DNA from: Candidatus Hadarchaeota archaeon
GTDB taxonomy: Archaea > Hadarchaeota > Hadarchaeia > Hadarchaeales > Hadarchaeaceae
Length of the DNA: 51,667 nucleotides
Reading direction: 5' to 3'
NCBI GenBank assembly: GCA_964345105.1
Contig: CAYFPZ010000010.1
Location: 1 to 51,667 of the forward strand
A model generated the notes under the pieces. The model saw nothing but the letters and a program-made list of their open reading frames with translations, ran no database searches and was not told the origin of the DNA. This document shows positions 2,736 to 51,667 of this stretch, in pieces; within the stretch, counting starts at the first letter, position 1; each line of letters starts with the position of its first letter. The position numbers were made by a program, and so were the translations under genes.

Positions 2736-3227
2736 ATGGACGACTTTACATTTGGATTGCTATATAGCGTTGTCGCAGTGGCCCTCGTGGGGGTCTTGTT
2801 ATTCTTGTTAGGTCGAAAATTCGATAGGCGGCTTTACCTAAAGCCCGTGATTTACGGCTTTTTCTTCGGGGCTGGTGTCAACTTACTTTTTGGAGGGGGG
2901 ATTTTCGCCTTTTTGGTAGGTGGTGCGGTTACTGGCTACTTGCTCGCTCGGGAGATTAGAGATTGGTGGAGTCAATTCCGAGCTGGGGGGTTGAATGGTA
3001 CTTTAATTATTTGCAGCCCCATCCTCTCGAACATGTTCATCCTCTTCACACGAGGCATCTCGGATATCATAGTTACTCAGGCTAGTCCTGAAGAGGTATT
3101 ATTCCTGCTTTATGGGGACATGTTTCTCTATGCTTTTATGTTGGTAGCCATTGTTGGCATTGGCGCCGTGCTGGGGGGATTGCTGCGCAAATTCTTAAAG
3201 CCTTCTGAGATGACACTTCAACAATAG
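2736..3227 (+). CDS. Hypothetical integral membrane protein
   Basis: 163-aa ORF with several hydrophobic Gly-rich segments. No family recognised. Confidence 0.5.
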   Translation: MDDFTFGLLYSVVAVALVGVLLFLLGRKFDRRLYLKPVIYGFFFGAGVNLLFGGGIFAFLVGGAVTGYLLAREIRDWWSQFRAGGLNGTLIICSPILSNMFILFTRGISDIIVTQASPEEVLFLLYGDMFLYAFMLVAIVGIGAVLGGLLRKFLKPSEMTLQQ

Positions 3228-3270
3228 CGAGTTTTTCTCTTTACAAAGAACTGCTTTTGAAACACAAATC

Positions 3271-3278
3271 ATTTATCC
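3271..3278 (+). promoter_or_regulatory. Candidate TATA box for the tRNA locus
   Basis: atttatcc in an AT-rich stretch, about 25 nt upstream of the first AGCGGGG (3303). A second A/T box, aaaaatta, lies at 3281-3288. Position-based only. Confidence 0.3.
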
Positions 3279-3302
3279 CGAAAAATTAGACGAATTCACG
3301 GT

Positions 3303-3312
3303 AGCGGGGTAG
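3303..3312 (+). repeat. Leader copy of tRNA exon 1 (AGCGGGGTAG), direct repeat of 3321-3330
   Basis: Identical 10-mer 18 nt upstream of the exon-1 copy that sits in a BHB. With flanking nt (3299-3309 GGTAGCGGGG) it can pair over 10 bp with 3503-3512 CCCCGCTACC. Confidence 0.6.
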
Positions 3313-3320
3313 CTACCTGC

Positions 3321-3510
3321 AGCGGGGTAGAGCAGCAGTAGGGAACTACTCTGCCCCCACGGCAGCATGGAGTGCCCGCCGGTCGTGGAAAACCACGGGC
3401 GAAGCTCATAAGGCGTCAAGCCATGAGTTTGGCGCTCCTGCGAGACCCGGAGGTCAGTGGTTCAAGAGAGAGCGGCGTAAAACCTCTCTCGGAATTTCCA
3501 CTCCCCGCTA
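3321..3510 (+). tRNA. Initiator tRNA-Met (anticodon CAU) interrupted by four introns
   Basis: Exons 3321-3330, 3361-3382, 3404-3410, 3445-3466 and 3497-3510 join to AGCGGGG UA GGGC AGCAUGGAGU GCCC G CCGGG CUCAUAA CCCGG AGGUC AGUGG UUCAAGU CCACU CCCCGCU A (75 nt). All four stems are fully Watson-Crick. It has the A1:U72 pair, three G:C pairs at 29-31:39-41 and a CAU anticodon, which are archaeal initiator hallmarks. Introns of 30, 21, 34 and 30 nt at positions 10/11, 30/31, 37/38 and 59/60 each sit in bulge-helix-bulge-like structures. No encoded CCA (CC then T). Confidence 0.85.
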
Positions 3511-3555
3511 CCTTATCTAGCTTGATAGCCTGAGGAAGTCAATAGGAGATTGCTC

Positions 3556-4196: not shown

Positions 4197-5336
4197 TCAT
4201 TTGATTAGTCCAATTTTGTAAAGGTACTCAGCTGCTAGCACTGCACCCTTCGCTGCGCCAAGCTCGGTGTTGTGTGAGAGCACGGTGTACTGGAAACCAT
4301 TGTCAAAAGCGTTCGCTTCCACTCCACCGATGGCTGCGACCATGCCATCTTCCAAGTCTGAGTCGAACCTCGGCTGGGGCCTGTCGATTTCATCCATGAC
4401 TACTATCGGCTGCTTAGGTGCGGTCGGTAATGCCAGTTTCTGCGGTTCGCCCCGATAATTTTTCCAAACTTCTTTCAGCTCATCAATACTGCATCCTTTC
4501 GTGGTTTCGATGAAAACAGACTCCGTGTGGCCATCGAGGACCGGGACGCGATTACACTTGCACGCAATCTTAAATCCCGCTGGTGTGATTTTGCCCCCGC
4601 TGAATTCTCCGAGGAGCTTCACTGTTTCTTTTCTGACTTTTTCTTCCTCCATGCGAATGTATGGAATGACGTTGCCTTCGAAAACACTTTGTGAAAATTT
4701 ATCCAGTCCAGCCGGGAGGTCGGATCCCTGTACCTTTCGCTGTTCGGCCCAACTTTTGACCGCACCATACCCTGCTCCAGATACAGACTGCATCGAAGCC
4801 ATCGTCACGTGCTTAAGTCCGAACTTATCGTGTACAGGCTTCAACGACATCACTAGGCCAATAGTCGTGCAGTTGGGCTGAGGCACGACAAATCCCTTCC
4901 AACCTCTGCCTTTTTGTTGCACATCTATGATGTCCGCATGTGACTCATTCACACTCGGCAGGTATACGAAGCTGTCTTCGAAGTAGCGGTAGGCGGAGGC
5001 CGTGCTGATTACTGGCTTTTCCACCGCGATGTTTCCCTCGACCTCTAGCGCCGTTTCCGACGGCAATGCTGAAAAGAACAAGCTGTTTTCTTCAAGGCTT
5101 ACTTTGCGAAGATTCTGGACCATCATGTCTAGAATTTTTTTGCTGGGCGCTCCTTTACAAAACCATCTTGAATGTTCCCTTCCATAGTTTAGCGCGTCCG
5201 CATACTTCTTGCCAGCAGACCTTTCCGACGCATACAATGCCGTGAGCTCGAACCACGGGTGCTTCTGGAGGTTGAGTACAAATTTCTGCCCAACCTCGCC
5301 CGTCGCGCCCAAGACAGCAATTGGGATTTTCGCCAT
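4197..5336 (-). CDS. asd: Aspartate-semialdehyde dehydrogenase
   Basis: N-terminal IAVLGATGEVGQ Rossmann motif, active-site PNCTTIG, SVSGAGY. Sits in a lysine/DAP gene context. Confidence 0.9.
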   Translation of the reverse strand: MAKIPIAVLGATGEVGQKFVLNLQKHPWFELTALYASERSAGKKYADALNYGREHSRWFCKGAPSKKILDMMVQNLRKVSLEENSLFFSALPSETALEVEGNIAVEKPVISTASAYRYFEDSFVYLPSVNESHADIIDVQQKGRGWKGFVVPQPNCTTIGLVMSLKPVHDKFGLKHVTMASMQSVSGAGYGAVKSWAEQRKVQGSDLPAGLDKFSQSVFEGNVIPYIRMEEEKVRKETVKLLGEFSGGKITPAGFKIACKCNRVPVLDGHTESVFIETTKGCSIDELKEVWKNYRGEPQKLALPTAPKQPIVVMDEIDRPQPRFDSDLEDGMVAAIGGVEANAFDNGFQYTVLSHNTELGAAKGAVLAAEYLYKIGLIK

Positions 5337-10828: not shown

Positions 10829-12177
10829 TTACTCTCAACCTCGCGAAGAGCTTCCCCGAAGATATCTAGGCCGAGTTCGAGTTCGCGTTGACTTATGATG
10901 AACGGTGGAGCTATTCGAATTACAGATTGTCCCCCCCGGAAGACGATGAGCCCCCGGTTCAAGGCTTTCTGTATAACTGCATTGCGCTCTTTGATTGCTT
11001 GCTTCTTTGTTCGCCGATCTTTGACCAATTCCACAGCTAGCAGCAGTCCCTTACCCCTAACTTCGCCAATCAAGCGGGACTCTTCGGCAAATTCGTGCAG
11101 CCGCTTGAGCGCCAGCTCGCCTAGTTTGCCAGTTCGTTTCACGAGTTTCTGTTTTTCTAGGATATCTAACCCCTCGAGGGCCGCCGCGCAGGCGATTAGG
11201 TTGCCCCCGAAGGTCGAGGCGTGCGCTCCAGGTTCCCAGTCCATGACCTTCGCGCTGGCTATTGTCGCACCTATTGGAGCCATCCCACCAGCTAGTGCTT
11301 TCGCTACGCACACGATGTCAGGCGTTACTCCCCAATGCTCCATCGCGAACATCTTGCCCGTTCGCCCGAGGCCTGTCTGGATCTCGTCGGCTATAAAGAG
11401 CCAATCGTGCTCCTCGCACAGCTCCTTCAACATTGGGTAGTACTCAGGTGGGGGGATGATGTACCCTGAGCTACCTTGGATCGGCTCGGTGATGACTGCA
11501 GCAACCTCCTCAGGCGGGATTACTTTTCTTATTGATTTACGGATGTACTCAATGCATGCGAAATCGCACTTTGGACAACTCTGGTTGAGGGGGCATCGGT
11601 AGCAGTAGGGGTAGGGCATGAAGCTCACGCCCGGCACTAGCGGGGCAAAGTAGCGATGGTGCACGACGTTTACTGAGGATAGACTCATCGCTCCGAAAGT
11701 CCGGCCGTGGAATGCTCCTGTGAAGGCAATCATGCGTGGGCGGCGGGTGTGCCAGCGAGCGCACTTGAATGCTGCTTCCACTGACTCGGCACCACTATTT
11801 CCGAAGTAAACGCGCTTGGCAAACTTTCCAGGAGTAATCCTCACGAGTTTTTCAGCGAGCTTCACCTGCGCCTCGTAGTAGAAATCGGTTCCGGCGAAGT
11901 GCGTGAGCTTCGTAGCCTGTTGCTCGACGGCGCGGATGAGTTGAGGGTGGGAGTAACCAAAGTTGAGGACGAACATGCCCGATGTGAGATCGAGCAAGAC
12001 GTTTCCGTCCACATCCCGCACGTAACAACTCCAACCTTCCTTCGCCACTATCGGCTCAGATCGCATGTAGGAAGGCGACATCACACGCTCATCACGTGTA
12101 ACTATCCCTTTTGCCCGCGGTCCGGGGATTGGTTTGACAATTCGTGGACCGTTTTTTACCCATGCTGGTTTTGGCAA
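10822..12177 (-). CDS. Class-III PLP aminotransferase (ArgD/GabT/DapC-like), first gene of the DAP operon
   Basis: GNSGAESVEAAFK, DEIQTGLGRTG, and the AKALAGG PLP-Lys region. Substrate cannot be assigned from sequence. Confidence 0.8.
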   Translation of the reverse strand: MPKPAWVKNGPRIVKPIPGPRAKGIVTRDERVMSPSYMRSEPIVAKEGWSCYVRDVDGNVLLDLTSGMFVLNFGYSHPQLIRAVEQQATKLTHFAGTDFYYEAQVKLAEKLVRITPGKFAKRVYFGNSGAESVEAAFKCARWHTRRPRMIAFTGAFHGRTFGAMSLSSVNVVHHRYFAPLVPGVSFMPYPYCYRCPLNQSCPKCDFACIEYIRKSIRKVIPPEEVAAVITEPIQGSSGYIIPPPEYYPMLKELCEEHDWLFIADEIQTGLGRTGKMFAMEHWGVTPDIVCVAKALAGGMAPIGATIASAKVMDWEPGAHASTFGGNLIACAAALEGLDILEKQKLVKRTGKLGELALKRLHEFAEESRLIGEVRGKGLLLAVELVKDRRTKKQAIKERNAVIQKALNRGLIVFRGGQSVIRIAPPFIISQRELELGLDIFGEALREVESKC

Positions 12178-12294
12178 ACTCTCACCCTAAAGGTTTACTC
12201 AAATATATCTATTTAAATAATTACGGCAGCGCAACACAGCGAGCTAACTAAGTTTTTTATAGCCAGCAGCGCCTTTTCCTTCAGAGGTGCACTT

Positions 12295-13182
12295 GTGGTA
12301 AATCCTAAAATGCGTGTTGGAAAAAAGGATGTGTTAGCAGTTTTACCGAAACGAAGGCGGGGAGCACACAAGGGTGACTATGGGAGGTTACTCGTTGTCG
12401 GAGGCGGATTGCGTTATGTTGGAGCTCCAGCGCTCGTTGGCCTAGCCGCGTTACGTTCCGGTGTTGACCTCGCGATCATTGCTGCGCCTGAAAAAGCAGC
12501 TTGGACGATAAACTCATTCTCACCAGATCTTATCACAATCAAACTCCCCTGCCGCGACCTTGAGCCCCCCGCACTTTCTGAATTACGGAACGAATTTAAA
12601 CTCTCAACGGCCGTAGTCGTGGGACCAGGGTTGGGCACGCTCGCGAAGACACGTGACGCCATAATCGAGATAGCACGCACGCTCAAGGAGGCACAACCAA
12701 ACATGCCCGCGCTCTTCGACGCGGATGGGTTGAAAGCGCTGGCATCAGAGCGAGATTTACTTCAGGGGATGCGTTGGGTCCTGACGCCCCATGCGCGTGA
12801 GTTCGAATTACTAACTGGCGTGGATCTTCCAGCTGACATAAACGGACGGGCCCAACAGGTCAAGGCCGCCGCAAAGCAGTTCGGCTGCACTGTGCTGTTG
12901 AAAGCATGGGTAGACATTATCGCATCACCTGCTGGGAAAGTGAAACTCAATTACACGGGCAACCCCGGAATGACAGTGGGAGGTACAGGTGATGTTCTTG
13001 CGGGGATCGTGGGAACCTTCTTGGCGCAAGGGGTAAAACCTTTCAAGGCTGCGGTCTCTGGAGCTTGGGTATGCGGGCGGGCGGGAGATCTGTGTCTTCG
13101 GGAAAAGAGTAATGAATTCTTGGCATCAGACTTGCTTGAAAAGTTGCCCGAAGTTTTCAAGGAGGTTAGGGGGAGGAGATGA
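12295..13182 (+). CDS. nnrD: ADP-dependent NAD(P)HX dehydratase (YjeF C-terminal domain family)
   Basis: [29 protein letters not shown] motifs. Start is GTG at 12295, or ATG at 12310. Confidence 0.85.
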
Positions 13183-14483: not shown

Positions 14484-15026
14484 ATGAATGGCATGATAGA
14501 AATAAGATTTCATGGTCGCGGTGGGCAAGGAGCAGTGACCGCGGCTAGGTTGCTTGCCGAGGCGGCTTTTGCGGAAGGTAAATATAGCCAAGCTCTTCCA
14601 TTTTTCGGCGCTGAAAGAAGAGGAGCCCCGGTGCTCGCGTTCACGCGAATCGATAACAGGCCAATTCGTATCCGCACGCAAATTTACGAACCTAACTACG
14701 TGGTGGTACTAGACCCTTCACTGCTAGAAGTTGTAAAAGTCGCTTCTGGTATAAAGCATGGTGGGCTAATAGTGCTCAACTCTAATAAAACTGCTCAATT
14801 TTCCAATGCTAAAACCGCTTTTGTCGATGCCACTTCAATAGCGAAGGAGATGCTAGGAGTGCCGATAACAAACACGGCCATGCTGGGCGCTTTTGCGAAG
14901 GCAACAAAGCTCGTGTCGTTGGACTCTCTCATAAATGTAATCAAAGGGCACTTTTCCAGCAAACTTGCAGAGAAAAACATCGCCGCGATAAAAGCAGCTT
15001 ATGAACAAACAAAGGTGGTAAAATGA
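14484..15026 (+). CDS. porG: Pyruvate (2-oxoacid):ferredoxin oxidoreductase, gamma subunit
   Basis: [41 protein letters not shown]. Confidence 0.9.
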
Positions 15027-17357: not shown

Positions 17358-19691
17358 ATGTGTTTAAAATTGGGTGGGAATTTGCGCGCTCGTGCTGAAA
17401 TAGCAGTCACTGGCCTAGTGCAGGGTGTAGGATTTAGACCGTTCATCTATCGACTTGCTACTCATCACGGGCTCACCGGCTTCGTCCGGAACATGGGCGA
17501 CGCGGGAGTGCAGGTGGTAGTCGAGGGTGATAAAAGGGCAATCGAAAAATTTGTCAACTCGTTGTGTCCCGAACAACCCCCGCTCGCACGAATAGATGAC
17601 GTCCGAGTTGTGTGGAAGAATCCAACCAACGAATTCGCTATTTTTAGGGTAGTGCCGAGTGAAATAACTGGTTTGGGGCTTCCTTCAGTAGCGCCACCCG
17701 ATCTCGCGCTCTGTGAAGATTGCCTACACGAGATGCTCGACCCAAGCGACCGGCGCTATAATTATCCCTTCATCACCTGCGTCAACTGTGGCCCTCGCTT
17801 CACTATCATCGAGAAGCTTCCCTACGACCGCCCCCGAACTTCAATGAAGGCTTTCCCGCTCTGCGCCGATTGTCTCCACGAGTATCAGAACCCCCCAGAC
17901 CGACGATACCACGCAGAACCAACGTGTTGCTCCATCTGCGGTCCCCGGATGAAGCTCTACGATGCAGAGGGTAATCCCATTGATGTGCCCGAACCGCTGC
18001 GTGAGGTAGCGCGTCTGCTTGATGGGGGTAGCATAGTCGCCATCAAGGGAATAGGAGGAATTCACATAGCATCTAAAACGACCGAGGATGGGGCACTCGC
18101 ACGCATGCGGAGGGCATTCAACCGCTTTCAGCAACCATTTGCGGTAATGTCCAGAGATATTAAGACAATCCGAACTTTTGCGGAGGTCGGTAAAGCCGAA
18201 CTTGAATTGCTTACATCCTTCCGACGGCCGATAGTTGTGCTCCAACGCTCTAGCGATTACGTGCTTTCAGAGCTCGTGGCACCAGGTTTGGATTCGGTTG
18301 GCGTGATGCTCCCTTACTCGGGAATTCATCACCTCATTCTGAACTACGGCAAGGATCCTGCCTACGTCATGACGAGCGCAAATGTCGCTGGGTTACCGAT
18401 GATGATAGATAACAATGAAGCCTTCAGGAAGCTGCGCGGGGGCGTCGATTACTTCCTACTTCATGATCGGCTAATCGTCAACCGATGTGATGACTCGGTA
18501 ATCAAGGTGATCGATGGAAAGCCAGCATTTTTGAGGCGTTCGCGAGGTTACGTGCCGGAGCCCTTGAAGCTCACTTTCACGAGTGATAGAAAAGTGCTCG
18601 CAGTGGGAGCGGAGCTCAACGTGACTTGCTCGGTTCTGACGGGCGACCGGTGCTTCCCCAGTCAACATATAGGCGACACCACAAAAGTGGAAACTCTCAA
18701 ATACATGCAATCAGCTGTTGATCGGCTTATGCGCCTGTTAAAATTGGACTCAGTTGACATAGTTGTCCACGATTTACACCCCAACTATACAACAACAAAG
18801 ATTGCACCGCGGATGGCAAAGAAGCTCGGAGCAAAAACCCTTTCTGTTCAACATCATCACGCTCACCTTGTCGCCCTGATGGCAGAATGTGGTCTGAGCG
18901 AGTTTGTCGGCATCGCCATCGATGGTGTTGGATATGGTCCAGATGGCACGATATGGGGTGGCGAAGTCATGTTGGCCGACCTTAACTCGTTTAAACGTGT
19001 GGGCGGGCTAATGAGCCAGCGTATGCCGGGGGGTGACTTGGCAGCGATATTTCCAGCGCGCATGGTTGCAGGCATCCTCTGGCCGCACATCGAGCGTGAG
19101 GAGCTTGAGCGGGTTCTGGACGAGTTCTGCGCGAGTAGCTTCAGACGCGGGAAGCAAGAGAGAGATATAGTTATTCGCCAACTCGAGCGCGATTTGAACG
19201 TGTTTCAAACGAGTAGTTGCGGCAGAGTACTCGATGCCATCGCCTGCCTGCTCGGGATTTGCAACGAACGAACCTACGAGGGCGAGCCAGCGATTAAACT
19301 CGAGGCGGCAGCAAACAAGGGGGAAGCAGGTGAAGCAAGGCTAGAACCCGTGATCGAAAAGGTCGACGGGATGGTGGTCGTCAACACATCTCGGTTGCTT
19401 GTGGACGTACTCGATGCCATTCGAGCACGAGTTTCCCGCAGACACATCGCGGCTGCGGCCCAACGAACTATCGCTCGGGGGTTGGCGTCAGTCGCTATCG
19501 AAGCAGCTTCCTCTAAAGGGATTGAAGTCGTTGGGGGGTCAGGTGGGGTGTTCTACAATAGAGCGATCACCACAGCAGTGCGCAAGGAAGTCGAGAAAGC
19601 GGGGTTGAGATTTGTTCAACACGAGCTTCTGCCTTCGGGTGATGGTGGTATCTCTGTCGGGCAGGCAATCGTCGCAGTAAAACAGCTATAA
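17358..19691 (+). CDS. hypF: [NiFe]-hydrogenase maturation carbamoyltransferase HypF
   Basis: Acylphosphatase domain (VQGVGFRPF), two zinc-finger pairs (CEDC...CVNCGPRF, CADC...CSICGPR), a YrdC-like domain and a Kae1-like C-terminal domain. 777 aa. Confidence 0.95.
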   Translation: MCLKLGGNLRARAEIAVTGLVQGVGFRPFIYRLATHHGLTGFVRNMGDAGVQVVVEGDKRAIEKFVNSLCPEQPPLARIDDVRVVWKNPTNEFAIFRVVPSEITGLGLPSVAPPDLALCEDCLHEMLDPSDRRYNYPFITCVNCGPRFTIIEKLPYDRPRTSMKAFPLCADCLHEYQNPPDRRYHAEPTCCSICGPRMKLYDAEGNPIDVPEPLREVARLLDGGSIVAIKGIGGIHIASKTTEDGALARMRRAFNRFQQPFAVMSRDIKTIRTFAEVGKAELELLTSFRRPIVVLQRSSDYVLSELVAPGLDSVGVMLPYSGIHHLILNYGKDPAYVMTSANVAGLPMMIDNNEAFRKLRGGVDYFLLHDRLIVNRCDDSVIKVIDGKPAFLRRSRGYVPEPLKLTFTSDRKVLAVGAELNVTCSVLTGDRCFPSQHIGDTTKVETLKYMQSAVDRLMRLLKLDSVDIVVHDLHPNYTTTKIAPRMAKKLGAKTLSVQHHHAHLVALMAECGLSEFVGIAIDGVGYGPDGTIWGGEVMLADLNSFKRVGGLMSQRMPGGDLAAIFPARMVAGILWPHIEREELERVLDEFCASSFRRGKQERDIVIRQLERDLNVFQTSSCGRVLDAIACLLGICNERTYEGEPAIKLEAAANKGEAGEARLEPVIEKVDGMVVVNTSRLLVDVLDAIRARVSRRHIAAAAQRTIARGLASVAIEAASSKGIEVVGGSGGVFYNRAITTAVRKEVEKAGLRFVQHELLPSGDGGISVGQAIVAVKQL

Positions 19692-35587: not shown

Positions 35588-35713
35588 GAATTGATATTCT
35601 CAAGCGTTCGGGCCTATTTTCCATGCAACTTGATTCTAATAGGCACAGAGTTTACCTTCTTAACACCTAGAAGCAGAAAATTCCAAATAATAGATAAGTG
35701 TAAATATATTACG

Positions 35714-37819
35714 ATGGTAAAATTTCGATATGACGGATTTTACATAGATGATGAGAGAATTCCTGTTTATAGTGGGGCTGTACACTACTGGAGGTTGGAC
35801 CCTAAAAAATGGGGGGAAATTCTGGACAAAGTCAAAGGAATGGGCTTTGAGGTAGTTACAACTTACATACCGTGGGAGATTCACGAAGTTAAGAAAGGCG
35901 TGTTCGATTTTGGGGAGAAGGAATCAAGTAAAGACATCGACAAGTACCTGACAATATGTGAAGAGAAAGGGTTGAAGGTGTTGGTCAGGCCCGGACCCCA
36001 AATAAACTCCGAACTGACATGGTTTGGATATCCTAAACGGATTTTGGAAGATTCCGAAATTCAAGCTAGAAGTGCCCAGAATACAAAAGTCGTGCTTACC
36101 CAAGTGCCCCGACCGATACCCGCGTTGAGTTACGCTTCAGAAAAGTTCTTCAAGGAGACAGCAGAGTGGTACGATGCCATTTGTTCCATCTTAAGAAAAC
36201 ACAAGGCCCCCCAAGGTTGTATAATGGGAGTACAGGTAGACAACGAATTGGGGTACTTTTTCCACATCAACCCGTATGTAGTTGATTACAGTAATTCCTC
36301 AATAAAAAAATACCAAGAGTTCCTGAGGGAAAAATATCAGACCATAGAAAACCTGAACGGTTTATATAAAACTAATTATGAATCATTCGAAAAGATAGAC
36401 CCGCCTAGAAGGTTCGAAGGCAGGAAAAAAGAAGAACTTCCGTACTACATAGACTGGATCGAATATCGGGAACATTACCTCATCAATTCACTCGATAGAT
36501 TAACGGGAATGATGAGGGAAAGAGGTTTAGATGATGTGCCAATCTTCCATAATTATCCTCATCCTCTTGGCCCTGGAGGATCGGTCGGTGCTACCACTAC
36601 CCCGTTTAACCTCCCAGAGTTGGAAAGCAAGTTGGATTTTGTCGGGTTCGACATATATTCCAGAAAAGAACTTTATGACCATGTCAAAACCATTGTTTCC
36701 TATGTCGTGGGATGCAGTAGATTTCCATTCATTCCTGAGTTTATAGCAGGGGTATGGCCTTGGTACTTCCGACCGGGCGAGCTAAATGACGAAGAATTCG
36801 TGACAAAAGCAGCATTGATGCACGGGATAAAAGGGTTCAGCAGATACATGATAGTGGAGAGGAACAGGTGGATGGGGTCTCCGGTAACGAGAGACGGACG
36901 GATAAGGGAGGATCGTTACAAATTTTTCAAACGCGTTAATGGAATTCTGAAAGAACACAATTTTGCAGATTTTAAGAAAATGAGTGAAATAATGTTAATT
37001 TCTAATAGAGACTATGATCGGCTGGAGGCAGCATCGGTTTTGATACCATTTCCTGGAGATTTTCTTGAGCCTCTTCTGGGCTTTTCTGAATATCCCAACT
37101 TCAGCACTGTTTCAGAGAACGACTTCGGATTTGATAAGTCCATACAACTTTCTAAGACGAAGTGGTTCAACGCCTACTATCGGGGACTGACTGAACAGGG
37201 ATATTCTTTTGTTTTAGGCGATACCTCTTTGAGCATGGACAAACTAAAGGAGTACAAAGTTTTAGTTTTGGCTTCATTTGAATACATGACTTCTGGTTTT
37301 CAGGAGAATCTACTGGAGTTCGCAAGAGATGGTGGGGGGATAGTGATGCTTGGGCCAAAGATTCCTAACTTGGATGAGCACTTCCGTTATGCGAACATAC
37401 TAAAGAAACACCTATCGCCGGAGAAAAGTTTTGGAATCGCCTTAGGCGAGAAAACTGTGGGAGTTAAGCACGAAGTCGGGAAAGGCAGCATGATTCATCT
37501 GCCAGAACTTGATAAAAGGGAACCTGGAAGGATTCTAGGTCGGATATTGGAAGATGCTTTTGTTTGGAGAGTAGAGAAAAACAATCCGAGGATTGATGTA
37601 ACAATCCACGAAAACATCAAAGAGCCTGAACGCAGACTCGTTTTCGTTGCAAATCCAACTTCCGACAAAATCCCAACAGAAATTGGATTAGATAAGATTC
37701 CAGTATCTGTTAGGGAGATCTGGGATAACAAGGCCGTGGAAATCAAGGATGGTAACATTGTTGATGAGTTGTCCCCGTACACAATCAGGATATATGAGTG
37801 TGTATTGGGGGGAGGATAG
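35714..37819 (+). CDS. Glycoside hydrolase family 35 (beta-galactosidase / archaeal exo-beta-D-glucosaminidase GlmA-like)
   Basis: SGAVHYWRL...W...L.KVKGMGFEVVTTYIPWEIHE..KGVFDF...GLKVLVRPGPQI and VQVDNELGY match the GH35 N-terminal TIM-barrel pattern. ATG at 35714. Confidence 0.8.
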   Translation: MVKFRYDGFYIDDERIPVYSGAVHYWRLDPKKWGEILDKVKGMGFEVVTTYIPWEIHEVKKGVFDFGEKESSKDIDKYLTICEEKGLKVLVRPGPQINSELTWFGYPKRILEDSEIQARSAQNTKVVLTQVPRPIPALSYASEKFFKETAEWYDAICSILRKHKAPQGCIMGVQVDNELGYFFHINPYVVDYSNSSIKKYQEFLREKYQTIENLNGLYKTNYESFEKIDPPRRFEGRKKEELPYYIDWIEYREHYLINSLDRLTGMMRERGLDDVPIFHNYPHPLGPGGSVGATTTPFNLPELESKLDFVGFDIYSRKELYDHVKTIVSYVVGCSRFPFIPEFIAGVWPWYFRPGELNDEEFVTKAALMHGIKGFSRYMIVERNRWMGSPVTRDGRIREDRYKFFKRVNGILKEHNFADFKKMSEIMLISNRDYDRLEAASVLIPFPGDFLEPLLGFSEYPNFSTVSENDFGFDKSIQLSKTKWFNAYYRGLTEQGYSFVLGDTSLSMDKLKEYKVLVLASFEYMTSGFQENLLEFARDGGGIVMLGPKIPNLDEHFRYANILKKHLSPEKSFGIALGEKTVGVKHEVGKGSMIHLPELDKREPGRILGRILEDAFVWRVEKNNPRIDVTIHENIKEPERRLVFVANPTSDKIPTEIGLDKIPVSVREIWDNKAVEIKDGNIVDELSPYTIRIYECVLGGG

Positions 37820-40513: not shown

Positions 40514-40909
40514 TTATTGTAGTTTGAGAAATTGAGTCGGTTTACAAATTTTTGTTCGGGTGAACTCTCCAAGTTTTAGTAAATGGTCATCGGAAGTAAT
40601 CAAGTAATCCGCTTTACCTTCAAGAGCACATTCCAATAATTTGTTGTCTTCCGGATCTTGCTTGATCTTGAAAACTTTTTGAGTTGGCTTGACTTGAGAA
40701 GCTTTTATAAAAAGAGTTCGCACTTTCTCCTCAAACTCTCTATTAGCCTTCACGTTCCGCAAGATCAACTCTACTTCCTTGCGAAGTTGGGAAGAAAAAA
40801 TTAATTCATGCTTGTTCTCGAGGCAGAGTTCAATAATTCTTGCCGAAGCGCTTTTTTGATTAAAATAAGCCGCTATGAAAATATTTGTATCTAAGACCAA
40901 CTTCAACAA
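40514..40909 (-). CDS. PIN-domain protein (PIN_3-type putative toxin/RNase)
   Basis: LVLDTNIFIAA at the N-terminus and ADYLITSDDHLL near the C-terminus. Confidence 0.8.
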   Translation of the reverse strand: MLKLVLDTNIFIAAYFNQKSASARIIELCLENKHELIFSSQLRKEVELILRNVKANREFEEKVRTLFIKASQVKPTQKVFKIKQDPEDNKLLECALEGKADYLITSDDHLLKLGEFTRTKICKPTQFLKLQ

Positions 40910-46958: not shown

Positions 46959-48617
46959 CTATTTTAAAATCGCTCCCTCGGATGCTGAGCTAACGATGCG
47001 CGAATAAAGCGCGAGGTAGCCCTTTCTAACCCGCGGTTTCGGAGGTTTAAACCGTTCAAGCCTAGCCGTAATATCGGCCTCGGGCAAAAGCAATTCCAAC
47101 TTGCGCCGTTTGATATCAATCAATATTTTGTCACCATCTTGCACGATGGATATTGGACCACCTTCTGCGGCCTCGGGAGAGACATGACCGACGCAGGCAC
47201 CGTGTGTACCACCCGAGAACCTGCCGTCCGTGATAAGCGCGACCGAATCACCCAGCCCCATACCAATGACCGCAGCTGTCGGGGCGAGCATTTCTCGCAT
47301 CCCCGGACCACCCTTTGGTCCCTCGTAGCGGATGACAATGACATCACCTTGTTTGATTCGCTTGTTCAAGATGGCTCTGGTCGCATCCTCTTCGCGATCG
47401 AAAATACGCGCAGCCCCCCGATGTCGTAACATGCGCGAGCTTACTCCAGCGTACTTTACAACCGCACCCTTGGGAGCGAGATTACCATAAAGAATCGCTA
47501 TACCACCCTCGGAGTGATACGGCTTCGTCAAAGGCTTGATAACCTTAGAATTGTGAAATTTTATAAACTTCAAATTATCTCGAACTCGGCGTCCCGTGAC
47601 CGTGAGCGGGCTTCCTCGAACTAACTTGCCCAATCTCTTCATGAGTGCTGGCACCCCGCCCGCCTGCTCTAGGTCAAGCATATAATGCTCGCCGCTTGGT
47701 CGCAGATTGCATATTTGCGGTGTGCGACGGCTGAGTCTATCGAACACATCCAAACAAAGTTTGGTGTTGGCATCATGAGCAATCGCGAGTAAATGAAGCA
47801 CAGTGTTAGTTGACCCCCCCAGCGCTAGGTCAACAATGATAGCATTTTCGAAGGCTGAGCGAGTCATAATCTTACGAGGCGTTATCCCGCGCTGTAACAA
47901 CTCCATGATTTGCTTACCACTTTGTTTCGCGAGGCGCCTCTTTTTTGCATCTATAGCGTGTGAAGTACCAACCCCCGGCAGCGACATCCCAAGTGCTTCA
48001 GTCAAACATGCCATGGTATTCGCAGTGAATAGGCCAGCACAGGAGCCACAGCCAGGGCAACATCGATCCTCTATCTCCCTCGCCTCGTGCCCGCTAAGCT
48101 TTCCAGCTTTAACCGCTCCGACTGCTTCGAATGCACTTATGACATCCAAACGTTTCCCCCGCCACTCCCCAGGCATCATCGGGCCTCCCGTAAGCATAAT
48201 CGCAGGAATGTTAACTCGTGCGAGAGCCATGAGCATGCCAGGCACGATTTTGTCGCAGCTCGCAATGGAAACTACCGCATCGAAACGATGAGCTTCCAAC
48301 ATGAGTTCTAGACTGTTAGCTATTACCTCTCGTGAAGGGAGCGAAAAGCACATACCTTGCGTGCCCATCGCTATACCATCACATATGCCGATGGTATTGA
48401 ACTCGAAAGGTGTTCCCCCAGCTGCACGAATGCCAGCAGAAACTGCCCCACTCAGTTCTCGGAGGTGCAAGTGCCCAGGGACCACATTGTTATAAGAGTT
48501 TGCTATCGCTACAAAAGGGCGTTCGATGTCTGCGTCGGTTAAACCATCAGCTTTCAGAAGTGCACGTCGGGGTAAACCTTCAAGACCTGAAACAACCTCT
48601 CGGCTACGAAGCTTCAT
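46959..48617 (-). CDS. ilvD: Dihydroxy-acid dehydratase
   Basis: [24 protein letters not shown] motifs. 552 aa. Confidence 0.95.
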
Positions 48618-48684
48618 TGACCCAGCCTCCTAGAAGGCTTCATCGTTAAGCCTTATTTAATTTTCCTGATACAAAAATACGTTA

Positions 48685-49671
48685 TCACTTTTCGATGCCA
48701 GCCCACTTGCGTAAATCTCGCCCAATCTTCTCAATGAGATGCTCTTTCGCAGCCTCACGCATTTTCTGCAAGTTTGGAATTTTCGCCTGACTTTCTGCGA
48801 CCCATTCTTTCGCAAATTTGCCGCTCTTGACATCCGCGAGCATTTTCTTCATCACTTCACGAGCGCGTTCGTCGATTACCCACTTGCCTCTAGTTCTACC
48901 ACCATACTCTGCGGTGTTACTGACGGCTTTCATCATTCCCTCGATTCCATGCTCGTAAACGAGGTCGATGATTAGCTTGAGTTCATTGAGGCACTCAAAA
49001 TACGCTATTTCTGGCTGATATCCAGCTTCAACTAAAGTTTCAAACCCAGCTTTTATTAGCTCCGAGACTCCACCCACGAGCACGACTTGCTCCCCAAAAA
49101 GATCGGTCTCAACTTCTTCTTTGAACGTTGTCTCCACCACCCCGATTCTAGTTAGCCCAACTCCTTTTGCGAGCGCTAGGGCAATCTGCCTCGCTTGACC
49201 ACTGGGATCTTGGGCGACCGCGAGCAACCCCGGCGTTCCAGAACCCTGCTGGTACATGCGCCGCAAGAGTGCTCCCGGCGCCTTTGGGGCAATCATGATC
49301 ACGTCGACATCGTTGGGTGGAATGATCTGTTTGAAGTGGATGTTAAACCCGTGACTGAAGCAAAGCACCTTACCTTTTTTAATGTGTTGAGAGACCTGCT
49401 CACGGTAGACCGGCGCCTGGTACTCATCGGGGATAAGCATGTGGACGATGTCTCCCCGCCGCGCAGCTTCGGCGATATCATAGACCTCAAACCCATCAGC
49501 CACTGCTTTATCATAACTCGGATCCTTTATGCTTCCAATAATTACTTTGCAACCGGAATCACGAAGGTTGTTGGATTGCGCCTGCCCTTGGTTGCCGTAT
49601 CCTATGATCGTTATGGTTTTGTCTTTTAGAATACTCAGGTCGGCGTCTTGGTCGTAATAGATCTTCGCCAT
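48685..49671 (-). CDS. ilvC: Ketol-acid reductoisomerase
   Basis: IIGYGNQGQAQSNNLRDSG, HGFNIHF, LFGEQ. Confidence 0.95.
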   Translation of the reverse strand: MAKIYYDQDADLSILKDKTITIIGYGNQGQAQSNNLRDSGCKVIIGSIKDPSYDKAVADGFEVYDIAEAARRGDIVHMLIPDEYQAPVYREQVSQHIKKGKVLCFSHGFNIHFKQIIPPNDVDVIMIAPKAPGALLRRMYQQGSGTPGLLAVAQDPSGQARQIALALAKGVGLTRIGVVETTFKEEVETDLFGEQVVLVGGVSELIKAGFETLVEAGYQPEIAYFECLNELKLIIDLVYEHGIEGMMKAVSNTAEYGGRTRGKWVIDERAREVMKKMLADVKSGKFAKEWVAESQAKIPNLQKMREAAKEHLIEKIGRDLRKWAGIEK

Positions 49672-49687
49672 AACATCAGTCCATAAC

Positions 49688-50176
49688 TTATTTTACACGC
49701 GATATAAGAACTTGTCCTGAGCGAGCTACCTCTTTCAGCATTTTTGGGCCCAATGACTTGATCACACGTTCGATTTCGTCATGCTCTCCGCTGAGTTCAG
49801 CTATCACCATATTGTTTTTGGACTCAAGCACCCGACCACCCGCTCGCTCGATCTGCTGCACCATCTGCAATAGTTGCTTCTTGTTTAGTTTTCGTGTCTT
49901 TAACAGCGTCACCTCTCGAACGATGCTTTGCTCAGGCTCGATTACCTCAACATCCACGATGGGCTCCAAGCGGACTAGTACCCTACGCATGAACTCGGCC
50001 ATGCGGTCGTCTTCCTTGAACATCAGGATAATTCGTGCCAATCCGGTAGGCTCGATTCCTACTGTTATCGAATCTAAGTTAATCTGACGCCGGGTGAAAG
50101 TGCGTGATATCCTCATCATCACGCCGGGGACGTTTTCGCAGAGGACAGAAAAAATTCGGGTTTTCATCTTACACAC
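49688..50176 (-). CDS. ilvN: Acetolactate synthase small (regulatory) subunit
   Basis: ACT domain (FSVLCENVPGVMMRISRTFTRRQINLDSITVG). Abuts the ilvB stop. Confidence 0.85.
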   Translation of the reverse strand: MCKMKTRIFSVLCENVPGVMMRISRTFTRRQINLDSITVGIEPTGLARIILMFKEDDRMAEFMRRVLVRLEPIVDVEVIEPEQSIVREVTLLKTRKLNKKQLLQMVQQIERAGGRVLESKNNMVIAELSGEHDEIERVIKSLGPKMLKEVARSGQVLISRVK

Positions 50177-51667
50177 CTATGTTAACATCTGGTCAATTCT
50201 CCCTCCCGCTGGAACCATCGGCAATACGTGCTCGTCGGGGTCAATCGGGATGTCGAGCACCGCTGGCTTTCCACAGCGCAGAGCCTCGCGCAGCTTTGGT
50301 GCAACCTCGCTTGGTCTTGCCGCGCGATCCCCCCAAGCGTTGTATGCTTCGGCAAGTTTCACGAAGTTGGGTACTTTGCCAAGGCAGGTAGCGGAACGGC
50401 GCTTTTGGAAAAACAGGTCTTGCCACTGTTTGACCATTCCTAAGTAGCGATTGTTGAAGATGCACGAAACAACGTTTATCTTGTTCTCCACGACTGTTGC
50501 CAGTTCTTGAGAGTTCATCAGGAAGCTTCCATCCCCCGCGATGTTTACAACGTCACACTTCGGGCGCGCAACCTTTACACCCATCGCGGCTGGGAATCCG
50601 AAACCCATCGTGCCTAGACCACCCGAGGAGATGAAGTGTCGGGGCTTCTGCACCATATAGAAGTGTGCGGCCCACATCTGGCATTGCCCCACCTCAGTCA
50701 CTATGATAGCATTCTCATCGAGCACGCTCATTATCTCCTTGATGACGCGCTGTGGTTTGATGGGAACCTCATCGTAGTCCATTCGAGGAGCAAGATCCCT
50801 GCGCAGCTTTTTTACTCGCTCGATCCATCTGCTTGTCCGTCCTCGTCTCGCGTGGGAGCGAAGCCCTTTGATTATCGCAGTTAATGCCCGCTTCGCATCA
50901 CTGACTATCGGCAGGTCAACGCGAACGTTCTTGCCGATTTCAACTGAATCGATGTCGATGTGGATAATCTTAGCCTTTGGGGCAAAGCAGCGCACATCTC
51001 CAGTAGAGCGATCGCTGAAACGTGTCCCGACAGCAAGTAGTACATCTGACTCGGTCACCGCGAGGTTTGCAGCCATCCGCCCATGCATCCCCAACATCCC
51101 TAACGCGAGCGGGTGGTCTTCAGGTATCAATCCTTTGCCCAGCAGCGAAGTCGTCACTGGAGCACCGAGCAGCTCTGCAAGCTTAACCAGCTCGACCGAG
51201 GCACTCGACCATATCACGCCCCCACCCGCGTAAATTACTGGTTGCTCAGCCTTGGTGAGCATGTCAACAGCCTTTTTTATTTGTCCAGGCTCAGGCTCCA
51301 GCTTTTGGGGCTTTTCGTACTTCACTTTGGCAGGTATTTTGAAGTTGGCCTTGCTTGCTTGCACACTTTTAGGTAGGTCAATGTGAACAGGACCAGGCCT
51401 GCCCGTGATTGCGATTTTGAAAGCAAGCTTGACTACGTGTGGTAACTCTTCGGCGCGGTGGATGATGAAGTTGTGTTTGGTTATGGGTAACATCACGCTG
51501 AGCATATCTGCCTCTTGAAAAGCGTCAGTACCTAGAGCTTGAGTTGAAACCTGCCCGCTTATCGCGATTACGGGCGAGCTGTCCATGTAGGCATTCAGGA
51601 TGCCCGTTGTGAGGTTCGTAGCCCCAGGCCCAGAGGTCGTCATGCAAACTCCCTGCTTCCCAAGTGC
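50177..51667 (-). CDS. ilvB: Acetolactate synthase large subunit (N-terminus outside the window)
   Basis: The frame stays open to the window edge (...ALGKQGVCMTTSGPGATNL). TPP motif GDGSF...N. Confidence 0.9.
   Translation of the reverse strand, partial: ALGKQGVCMTTSGPGATNLTTGILNAYMDSSPVIAISGQVSTQALGTDAFQEADMLSVMLPITKHNFIIHRAEELPHVVKLAFKIAITGRPGPVHIDLPKSVQASKANFKIPAKVKYEKPQKLEPEPGQIKKAVDMLTKAEQPVIYAGGGVIWSSASVELVKLAELLGAPVTTSLLGKGLIPEDHPLALGMLGMHGRMAANLAVTESDVLLAVGTRFSDRSTGDVRCFAPKAKIIHIDIDSVEIGKNVRVDLPIVSDAKRALTAIIKGLRSHARRGRTSRWIERVKKLRRDLAPRMDYDEVPIKPQRVIKEIMSVLDENAIIVTEVGQCQMWAAHFYMVQKPRHFISSGGLGTMGFGFPAAMGVKVARPKCDVVNIAGDGSFLMNSQELATVVENKINVVSCIFNNRYLGMVKQWQDLFFQKRRSATCLGKVPNFVKLAEAYNAWGDRAARPSEVAPKLREALRCGKPAVLDIPIDPDEHVLPMVPAGGRIDQMLT

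Follow-up and report, generated by a model that had tools for sequence, protein, structure and literature searches.

A predicted initiator tRNA gene with four bulge–helix–bulge introns in Hadarchaeota

We analysed a contig of a Candidatus Hadarchaeota archaeon (GenBank assembly GCA_964345105.1, contig CAYFPZ010000010.1, positions 1–51,667; this whole stretch of 51,667 nucleotides is called the window). Positions 3321–3510 of the plus strand very probably constitute a working gene for initiator tRNA-Met (tRNAiMet), interrupted by four introns of the EndA type at tRNA positions 10/11, 30/31, 37/38 and 59/60. The gene lies in a 322-nt intergenic gap (3228–3549) that, as a first-pass annotation of this DNA had stated, separates two hydrophobic, membrane-protein-like open reading frames (ORFs; 2736–3227 upstream and 3550/3556–4143 downstream, the latter with a weak Sm_multidrug_ex match). 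Five colinear exons are contained within 190 nt: exon 1 (3321–3330; tRNA positions 1–10, AGCGGGGTAG), exon 2 (3361–3382; positions 11–30), exon 3 (3404–3410; positions 31–37), exon 4 (3445–3466; positions 38–59) and exon 5 (3497–3510; positions 60–73, TCCACTCCCCGCTA, ending in the discriminator base A73), all on the plus strand. Exon 3 is a micro-exon of only 7 nt, GCTCATA, and carries the anticodon CAT (3407–3409). Joined, the five exons read AGCGGGGTAGGGCAGCATGGAGTGCCCGCCGGGCTCATAACCCGGAGGTCAGTGGTTCAAGTCCACTCCCCGCTA, a 75-nt sequence that forms the complete cloverleaf the annotation had proposed.

ARAGORN identified the joined sequence as tRNA-Met(CAU), with the same stems as had been drawn by hand, and the minimum free energy (MFE) structure obtained with RNAfold was the cloverleaf (−36.2 kcal/mol), in which the D stem gains an A14-U pair relative to the ARAGORN call. 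The mature tRNA has a 7-bp acceptor stem starting with A1:U72, a D stem GGGC/GCCC, an anticodon stem CCGGG/CCCGG with the loop CUCAUAA, a T stem AGUGG/CCACU with the T loop UUCAAGU, and discriminator A. A CAU anticodon, A1:U72 and three consecutive G:C pairs (29–31:39–41) are the hallmarks of archaeal initiators. All three were seen in the spliced sequence, where the G:C pairs are G29–31:C39–41, and they were invariant across all orthologues described below; the initiator identity assigned earlier was thus confirmed. C74 and C75 are encoded at 3511–3512 (plus strand) whereas A76 is not, the next base being T; many orthologues, unlike the window gene, encode the full CCA.

The unspliced DNA gave no such signal. 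ARAGORN found no tRNA anywhere in the 51.7-kb window, and a search of the unspliced window against Rfam yielded no match at the gathering thresholds or at E ≤ 1, in agreement with the prediction that standard finders would miss the gene. A split or permuted tRNA gene was ruled out, all exons being colinear within 3321–3510. Self-splicing introns of group I or group II were also ruled out: they have a ribozyme core hundreds of nucleotides long, whereas the introns here measure 21 to 34 nt and produced no Rfam intron match even at E ≤ 1.

To obtain comparative evidence, we searched 26 related loci with positions 3280–3530 using blastn. An orthologous tRNAiMet gene was present at the same place, downstream of the gene for aspartate-semialdehyde dehydrogenase (ASD), in 22 of the 26, and 21 related genomes were found to hold it in synteny. 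The matches fell into blocks, and the spacing of the blocks varied between loci. Introns were then placed by reading the sequences and by spliced alignment with refinement against the bulge–helix–bulge (BHB) motif. Every locus examined encodes a 75-nt mature tRNA, and the mature sequences are near-identical. The intron sets differ widely. A single intron is present at 10/11 in L005, at 4/5 in L013 and at 59/60 in L011 and L015. Two are found in L016 (10/11 and 59/60), L008 (14/15 and 59/60) and L018 (10/11 and one in the D loop), and three in L006 (10/11, a short one at 37/38, and 59/60). The set of the window gene recurs in L001–L004 and L020, while L009 combines 10/11, 30/31 and 37/38 with 45/46.

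Five introns were found in L014 (gene at 12111–12323), in L007 (11799–12018) and in the four related loci L022 (11833–12040), L019, L012 and L017. A scan of metagenome contigs, anchored on the two junctions of exon 3, where intron 2 ends and intron 3 begins, gave 22 further true loci with three to five introns each, some of them on the same contigs as the genome loci; among these, L027, L034, L043, L048 and L049 also carry five, and L034 revealed a ninth insertion position, 15/16. One short pattern match, in L028 (439–467), was rejected as a chance hit: it is AT-rich, has no tRNA-like flanks and is not a short intron 3. Across the phylum, an orthologue therefore has between one and five introns, drawn from nine positions in total. 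The five-intron combinations use 4/5, 10/11, 14/15, 15/16, 30/31, 37/38, 45/46 and 59/60, and the D-loop site of L018 is additional.

Each of the four window introns is exactly missing in some syntenic orthologues, which leaves an intact tRNA sequence. Introns 1–3 are lacking in L011 and L015, intron 2 in L006 and intron 4 in L009, and of the four only intron 1 is present in L005. Taken intron by intron, intron 1 is also missing in L007, L008, L013 and the L022 clade, intron 2 in L005, L008, L011, L013, L015, L016 and L018, and intron 4 in L005, L013 and L018. Such exact presence or absence of segments marks them as introns, as opposed to random insertions or a chance assembly.

The mature sequence itself shows selection at the level of the spliced molecule. 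Variation is confined to nine of its 75 positions, six of which make up three T-stem pairs; the other 66 do not vary. In these pairs 100% of the cells are paired and 12 are compensatory, a level reached in none of 500 shuffles. Since the compensated pairs straddle the intron in the T loop, selection acts on the joined product. Removal of the introns restores the cloverleaf throughout: all 21 bracketed pairs form in each of the eight distinct mature variants. In addition, L013 and L005, each with a single intron, match the tRNA model of Rfam (44.2 and 31.8 bits, respectively).

These data bear on two other readings of the locus. The first holds that the cloverleaf is a chance product of five freely chosen segments in a GC-rich spacer; the boundaries were indeed picked by eye, and loose BHB-like geometry is frequent in the region. 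Nevertheless, the same 75-nt product is obtained from more than 40 independent loci with differing intron sets, some of them mostly contiguous. Together with the compensated mature pairs and the Rfam matches, the orthologue series refutes this reading, to which we assign a negligible probability. The second holds that the gene is a decaying or non-essential copy whose insertions stay unspliced while an intact tRNAiMet elsewhere does the work. It draws on the facts that only 51 kb of the genome is visible and that an annotation by standard finders passes over the gene. Yet the exons are under strong purifying selection across the phylum while the introns diverge, every change in the T stem is compensated across the intron in the T loop, and insertions occur only at sites with BHB geometry. 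Archaeal genomes, moreover, normally carry a single tRNAiMet gene. A search for the intron-less mature sequence of the window clade gave no match in the JGI metagenome contigs. We consider a decaying copy very unlikely.

The geometry of the splice sites was examined next to the comparative data. In line with the archaeal rule, at all eight cut sites a 4-nt strand of the motif's helix (H) is followed by two nucleotides, the cut and one further bulge nucleotide. The cloverleaf fixes the positions of the four junctions, and each of them reaches at least three H pairs and at least two inner pairs; as a control for chance, 2.2% of (start, end) pairs drawn at random, whether from the window or from within the gene, did the same. 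Because the criterion is permissive, with many matches in GC-rich structured RNA, we set geometry aside as sole proof and let the weight rest on the comparative data: the geometry of the four introns is consistent with BHB splicing but not decisive.

Introns 2 and 4 form good BHBs. Intron 2 (3383–3403, plus strand, 21 nt, position 30/31) is canonical in appearance, with an H of CGCC/GGCG (4/4 pairs), bulges GGU and AAG and an inner helix CGUGG/CCACG of 5 bp, and this BHB, earlier described as a textbook case, forms in the MFE structure of the precursor. In L007 its inner hairpin is fully compensated (CGCAU/AUGCG). Intron 4 (3467–3496, plus strand, 30 nt) lies in the T loop at 59/60 and has the full hBHBh' form, with the T stem as outer helix; an earlier uncertainty of one nucleotide in its boundary was settled at 59/60 by the orthologues. 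Its H, UUCA/GGAA, has three of four pairs in the window (one A·G mismatch) and 4/4 in many orthologues, and its inner helix is GAGAG/CUCUC. Among 14 distinct orthologues, 93.7% of the cells in the motif are paired and 10 of 17 pairs show compensatory changes; none of 500 shuffles reached these values and no slid register came close.

Introns 1 and 3 take only the relaxed form. The helices described for them are present, but competing folds exist and their H lacks covariation support, so that the original assignment of all four introns to BHB folds stands in full for introns 2 and 4 and in part for the other two. Intron 1 (3331–3360, plus strand, 30 nt, position 10/11) has an H of GGGU/CCCC with three of four pairs, an inner helix GCAG/CUGC of 4 bp and a distal hairpin. 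The fourth H pair (U8·C) forms in no orthologue, which effectively creates a 4-nt 5′ bulge, and the H competes with the acceptor stem. The boundaries of intron 1 are set by the presence/absence data.

Several observations weigh against a spliced, working gene as read here. No compensatory changes were found in the H of intron 1 among the orthologues, and RNAalifold prefers a continuous helix across its 5′ splice site. Both intron 1 and intron 3 have only three of four H pairs in the window, and thermodynamic models favour other folds for the two. We infer the splicing of the gene, the order of splicing and the 5′ end from sequence. A second tRNAiMet gene may lie outside the 51-kb window. Finally, none of ten window ORFs of 131–204 aa that were scanned encodes EndA, RtcB or RNase P; the scan returned one Pfam call, which was unrelated.

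Intron 3 (3411–3444, plus strand, 34 nt) occupies the canonical position 37/38 as a relaxed BHB whose interior is complementary to exon sequence. Its H is CUCA/UGCG (3/4) in the window; in L007, L027 and other relatives the second strand is UGAG (4/4). Intron 3 is unusually conserved, and its length is tied to the presence of intron 2: all 35 loci with intron 2 have an intron 3 of exactly 34 nt, and the sole locus with a different 37/38 intron is L006, where it measures 18 nt and intron 2 is missing. This suggests that gain, loss or selection affects introns 2 and 3, on either side of the 7-nt anticodon exon, as one unit.

Predicted folds pair the interior of intron 3 with exon sequence. In these, AUGAGUUUGG (3423–3432, within intron 3) pairs with exon positions 27–36, and GGCGCUCC (3431–3438) pairs with GGAGUGCC of exon 2. 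The segment AUGAGUUU(GG) pairs with AAGCUCAU before removal of intron 2 and with positions 27–36 after it. Variants in L001, L036 and L038 keep the pairings between intron 3 and the exons through wobble or Watson–Crick changes. With the other three introns removed, the BHB conformer of intron 3 lies 7.0 kcal/mol above the MFE (−49.3 versus −56.3 kcal/mol), and the ensemble probability of the anticodon-stem pair G29-C41 is 0.27. The anticodon stem, which is the outer helix of the intron 3 BHB, is formed only after intron 2 has gone; intron 3 therefore probably follows intron 2. From the modelled folds we infer an order in which intron 2 would be removed and ligated first, while the interior of intron 3 would keep the micro-exon in place, and intron 3 would be cut later.

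The number of removed segments could also be five instead of four. This might come about in two ways: through a nested intron 3 (19 nt at 3411–3429 plus 15 nt at 3430–3444), or through an exon 1 that begins with AGC at 3303–3305 and is followed by an extra 18-nt intron (3306–3323). Taking both forms together, we regard this as improbable. A nested segment 3411–3429 would have an H of CUCA/UGAG (4/4), like the 18-nt intron of L006, which resembles the 5′ part of intron 3. The folding of the precursor, proposed earlier as a check, reproduced the BHB of intron 2 in the MFE but paired the CUCA of intron 3 with this internal UGAG and not with the terminal UGCG. After notional loss of the first 19 nt, the 15-nt remainder would consist of anticodon stem plus a mini-hairpin, similar to the 15–16-nt intron at 4/5 of the L022 clade. 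However, intron 3 is 34 nt in all 35 loci with intron 2 and no short form occurs among them. The UUU that would serve as the internal "second bulge" is wobble-paired or sits in an internal loop, hence there is no clean bulge, and in the isolated anticodon arm the intron forms a 10-bp internal hairpin compatible with a single BHB. Two-step removal of intron 3 is thus energetically possible, but comparative support is lacking and we rejected it.

The second form of this alternative concerns the 5′ end. The start of exon 1 at 3321, as first annotated, is supported by the orthologues; what had been overlooked is a hairpin upstream of it that makes exon 1 ambiguous. This putative leader element (GGTAGCGGGGTAGCTACC, GGTAGC-GGGGTA-GCTACC; 3300–3317, plus strand, 18 nt, 6-bp stem) holds a second copy of the tRNA 5′ end AGCGGGGTAG at 3303–3312. 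It is kept in most orthologues (with a shifted stem TAGC/GCTA in L018) and missing in L015, L007, L008 and the group with a 14/15 intron. An upstream exon 1, reached either by the extra 18-nt intron or by a 48-nt one, gains from a weak BHB (H 3/4, inner 2) at 3306–3323. It gains also from the position of the upstream copy, which relative to the TATA-like box described below corresponds to the true 5′ end in the hairpin-less L015, L007 and L008; the same relation was seen by eye in L027 and L029, among others. Against this, the upstream copy has decayed as an acceptor strand (AGTGGGG in L001, AGCGAGG in L011 and L016, AGCGGGT in L014), which breaks acceptor pairing in these four loci while the hairpin is retained, and the BHB is weak or absent in most orthologues. 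The downstream copy is perfect in all of them. For this reason we placed A1 at 3321, took the hairpin to be a 5′ leader and rejected the upstream copy as the real exon 1. The hairpin resembles a tRNA 5′ end fused to a tRNA 3′ end (GCTACC plus AGC/TGC), and its sequence suggests that it may be the remnant of a tandem duplication.

A TATA-like element CATTTATCC at 3270–3278 (plus strand) is a candidate promoter on the basis of its spacing only: it lies about 28 nt upstream of G3300, and the same distance from TATA-like box to 5′ end is found in orthologues that lack the leader hairpin. The element is kept in the window clade, L014, the L022 clade, L016 and L048. When 3180–3227 was compared with the upstream regions of L005, L007, L009 and L011, several relatives were seen to have a tRNA promoter-like CTTAAAGCC within the 3′-terminal part of the upstream membrane-protein ORF (...LRKxLKP), whereas the window clade has an extra spacer of about 70 nt with its own CATTTATCC box.

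Our observations concern gene structure, and every RNA step in the following scheme is drawn from established archaeal tRNA biology. Transcription would start near G3300 from the TATA-like box at about 3272 and give a precursor with a 21-nt hairpin leader. At every pair of exon–intron junctions, in BHBs or relaxed BHBs, EndA would cut between the second and third nucleotides of the 3-nt bulges, and an RtcB-type ligase would join the five exons. The leader would be removed by RNase P and A76 added by the CCA enzyme. For introns 2 and 4 the BHBs would be ready-made in the primary transcript. Intron 1 would require that G5–G7 leave the acceptor stem, or else it would be cut as a relaxed motif. 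Until intron 2 is gone, pairing with the intron 3 interior would hold the 7-nt micro-exon in a helix. In some orthologues (L022, L019, L012, L017 and L013) a mini-intron of 15–16 nt interrupts the acceptor stem at 4/5. The 4-bp BHB helix of this intron, GUAG/CUAC, includes two nucleotides of the 5′ leader; in those genes splicing would therefore precede cleavage by RNase P.

Archaeal tRNA genes with multiple introns are a known kind, to which the hadarchaeal tRNAiMet gene belongs as one of the most fragmented tRNA genes described. Up to three introns per archaeal tRNA gene are given in the tRNAscan-SE 2.0 paper (PMC8450103), and a maximum of three by Fujishima and Kanai (PMC4033280); reviews kept to this figure until 2021. 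The first-pass annotation had likewise given a maximum of three, for Thermoproteales and relatives, and judged four to be exceptional. This does not hold: Valentin-Alvarado et al. (2024; PMC11291895, Supplementary Data 4) list four-intron genes in Freyarchaeia (Arg-TCT, Ile2-CAT and Leu-GAG) and in Atabeyarchaeia-2 (Trp), as well as one Asgard iMet gene with three introns. Marked disruption of tRNA genes in Hadesarchaea YNP_N21 is, in addition, described in the text of Kaneta et al. (2018; PMC5829648). Four introns in one tRNA gene are thus not unprecedented, and the intron richness of the phylum was already flagged in 2018.

Each of these systems differs from the present one. The multi-intron genes of Thermoproteales (Sugahara et al. 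2008, summarised in PMC4033280 and PMC8450103) likewise have short BHB or relaxed introns at canonical and non-canonical sites that are removed by EndA and missed by finders. According to these sources they reach three introns at most, as compared with four here and five in orthologues, and Hadarchaeota do not belong to Thermoproteota. The crenarchaeal origin expected earlier was contradicted by the ASD gene (4197–5336, minus strand), 700 nt away: it shares 83–91% identity with the ASD genes of Hadarchaeota metagenome-assembled genomes (MAGs), relatives of 69–91% identity occur only in MAGs of Hadarchaeota/Hadesarchaea, and the next-best matches are methanogens at about 41%. In Atabeyarchaeia and Freyarchaeia (PMC11291895), where most tRNA genes are interrupted, several non-canonical introns per gene also occur; these organisms belong to another phylum, whereas the hadarchaeal four-intron gene is an initiator and comes with population-scale presence/absence evidence for each intron. 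The YNP_N21 set is from the same phylum, and the survey text gives proportions and not per-gene counts (PMC5829648). The same text assigns to Hadesarchaea an EndA of the α4 type with an L3 loop, not of the (αβ)2 type.

More distant parallels exist. The nuclear tRNA-Ile(UAU) gene of Cyanidioschyzon merolae (PMC3728597) is interrupted by introns in the D arm, the T loop and at 37/38, each with an hBHBh' motif, and reverse transcription PCR showed that the outer introns are removed before the one at 37/38, a precedent for the ordered splicing proposed here. Unlike the hadarchaeal gene, it is eukaryotic, has three introns and contains no micro-exon. Split and tri-split tRNAs (Nanoarchaeum equitans, Caldivirga maquilingensis) and permuted tRNAs share the BHB/EndA machinery and similar break positions, but their pieces lie at separate loci or in permuted order, whereas the hadarchaeal exons are colinear within 190 nt. 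Our literature searches found no four-intron initiator tRNA, no five-intron tRNA gene, no report of nine insertion sites in one orthologous gene and none of a 7-nt micro-exon coupled with its two flanking introns; on five-intron tRNA genes and on hadarchaeal tRNA introns they yielded nothing further than PMC5829648 and PMC11291895.

A more far-reaching interpretation, which we put forward tentatively and would not bet on, is that, of all tRNA gene families described to date, hadarchaeal tRNAiMet has the greatest density of introns (as many as five colinear BHB introns, with nine sites per 75-nt gene) and that introns 2 and 3 are a coupled unit. The interior of intron 3, complementary to positions 27–36 and to the D-arm strand, would then tether the micro-exon and force excision and ligation of intron 2 before intron 3 is cut. 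Intron 3 would thus be a built-in device for ordering splicing and not a passive spacer.

Other gene content noted in the window fits an anaerobic hadarchaeon: it includes an MvhD/FlpD-like hydrogenase subunit, SufBD, a POR subunit and HypF, and further a GH35/GH42 beta-galactosidase-like protein, a PIN-domain protein, IlvD and acetolactate synthase subunits. These genes occupy 219–683, 727–1947, 14484–15026, 17358–19691, 35591–37819, 40514–40909 and 46959–51643. Other tRNA genes near the orthologous loci vary in length. tRNA-Ile(GAT) measures 93–94 nt in L002 (9806–9899) and L005 (12644–12736) and 78 nt in L003 (19194–19271), L006 (13708–13785) and L011 (13129–13206). A neighbouring tRNA-Ala(CGC) has a 16-nt canonical intron, tRNA-Cys is 90 nt long in L007 and 74–77 nt elsewhere, and ARAGORN reported one 91-nt "tRNA-???". 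These further cases lie at 13156–13243 in L005, 14213–14303 in L006 and 20646–20735 in L007. This variation fits a phylum-wide turnover of introns.

The orthologue series raises the highest per-gene count of tRNA introns that our literature searches found from four to five. In the window organism the initiator tRNA, which is required to start every protein, would require eight endonuclease cuts and four ligations before it is complete, and this splicing would include the rescue of a 7-nt exon that bears the anticodon. The gene illustrates the extent that protein-dependent splicing of tRNA can reach in a lineage for which the text of PMC5829648 reports an α4-type endonuclease. As a practical consequence, MAG annotation based on ARAGORN or Rfam will list this essential tRNAiMet as missing. 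With one to five introns at nine sites, the orthologues constitute a natural experiment on the gain and loss of BHB introns and on the order in which they are spliced.

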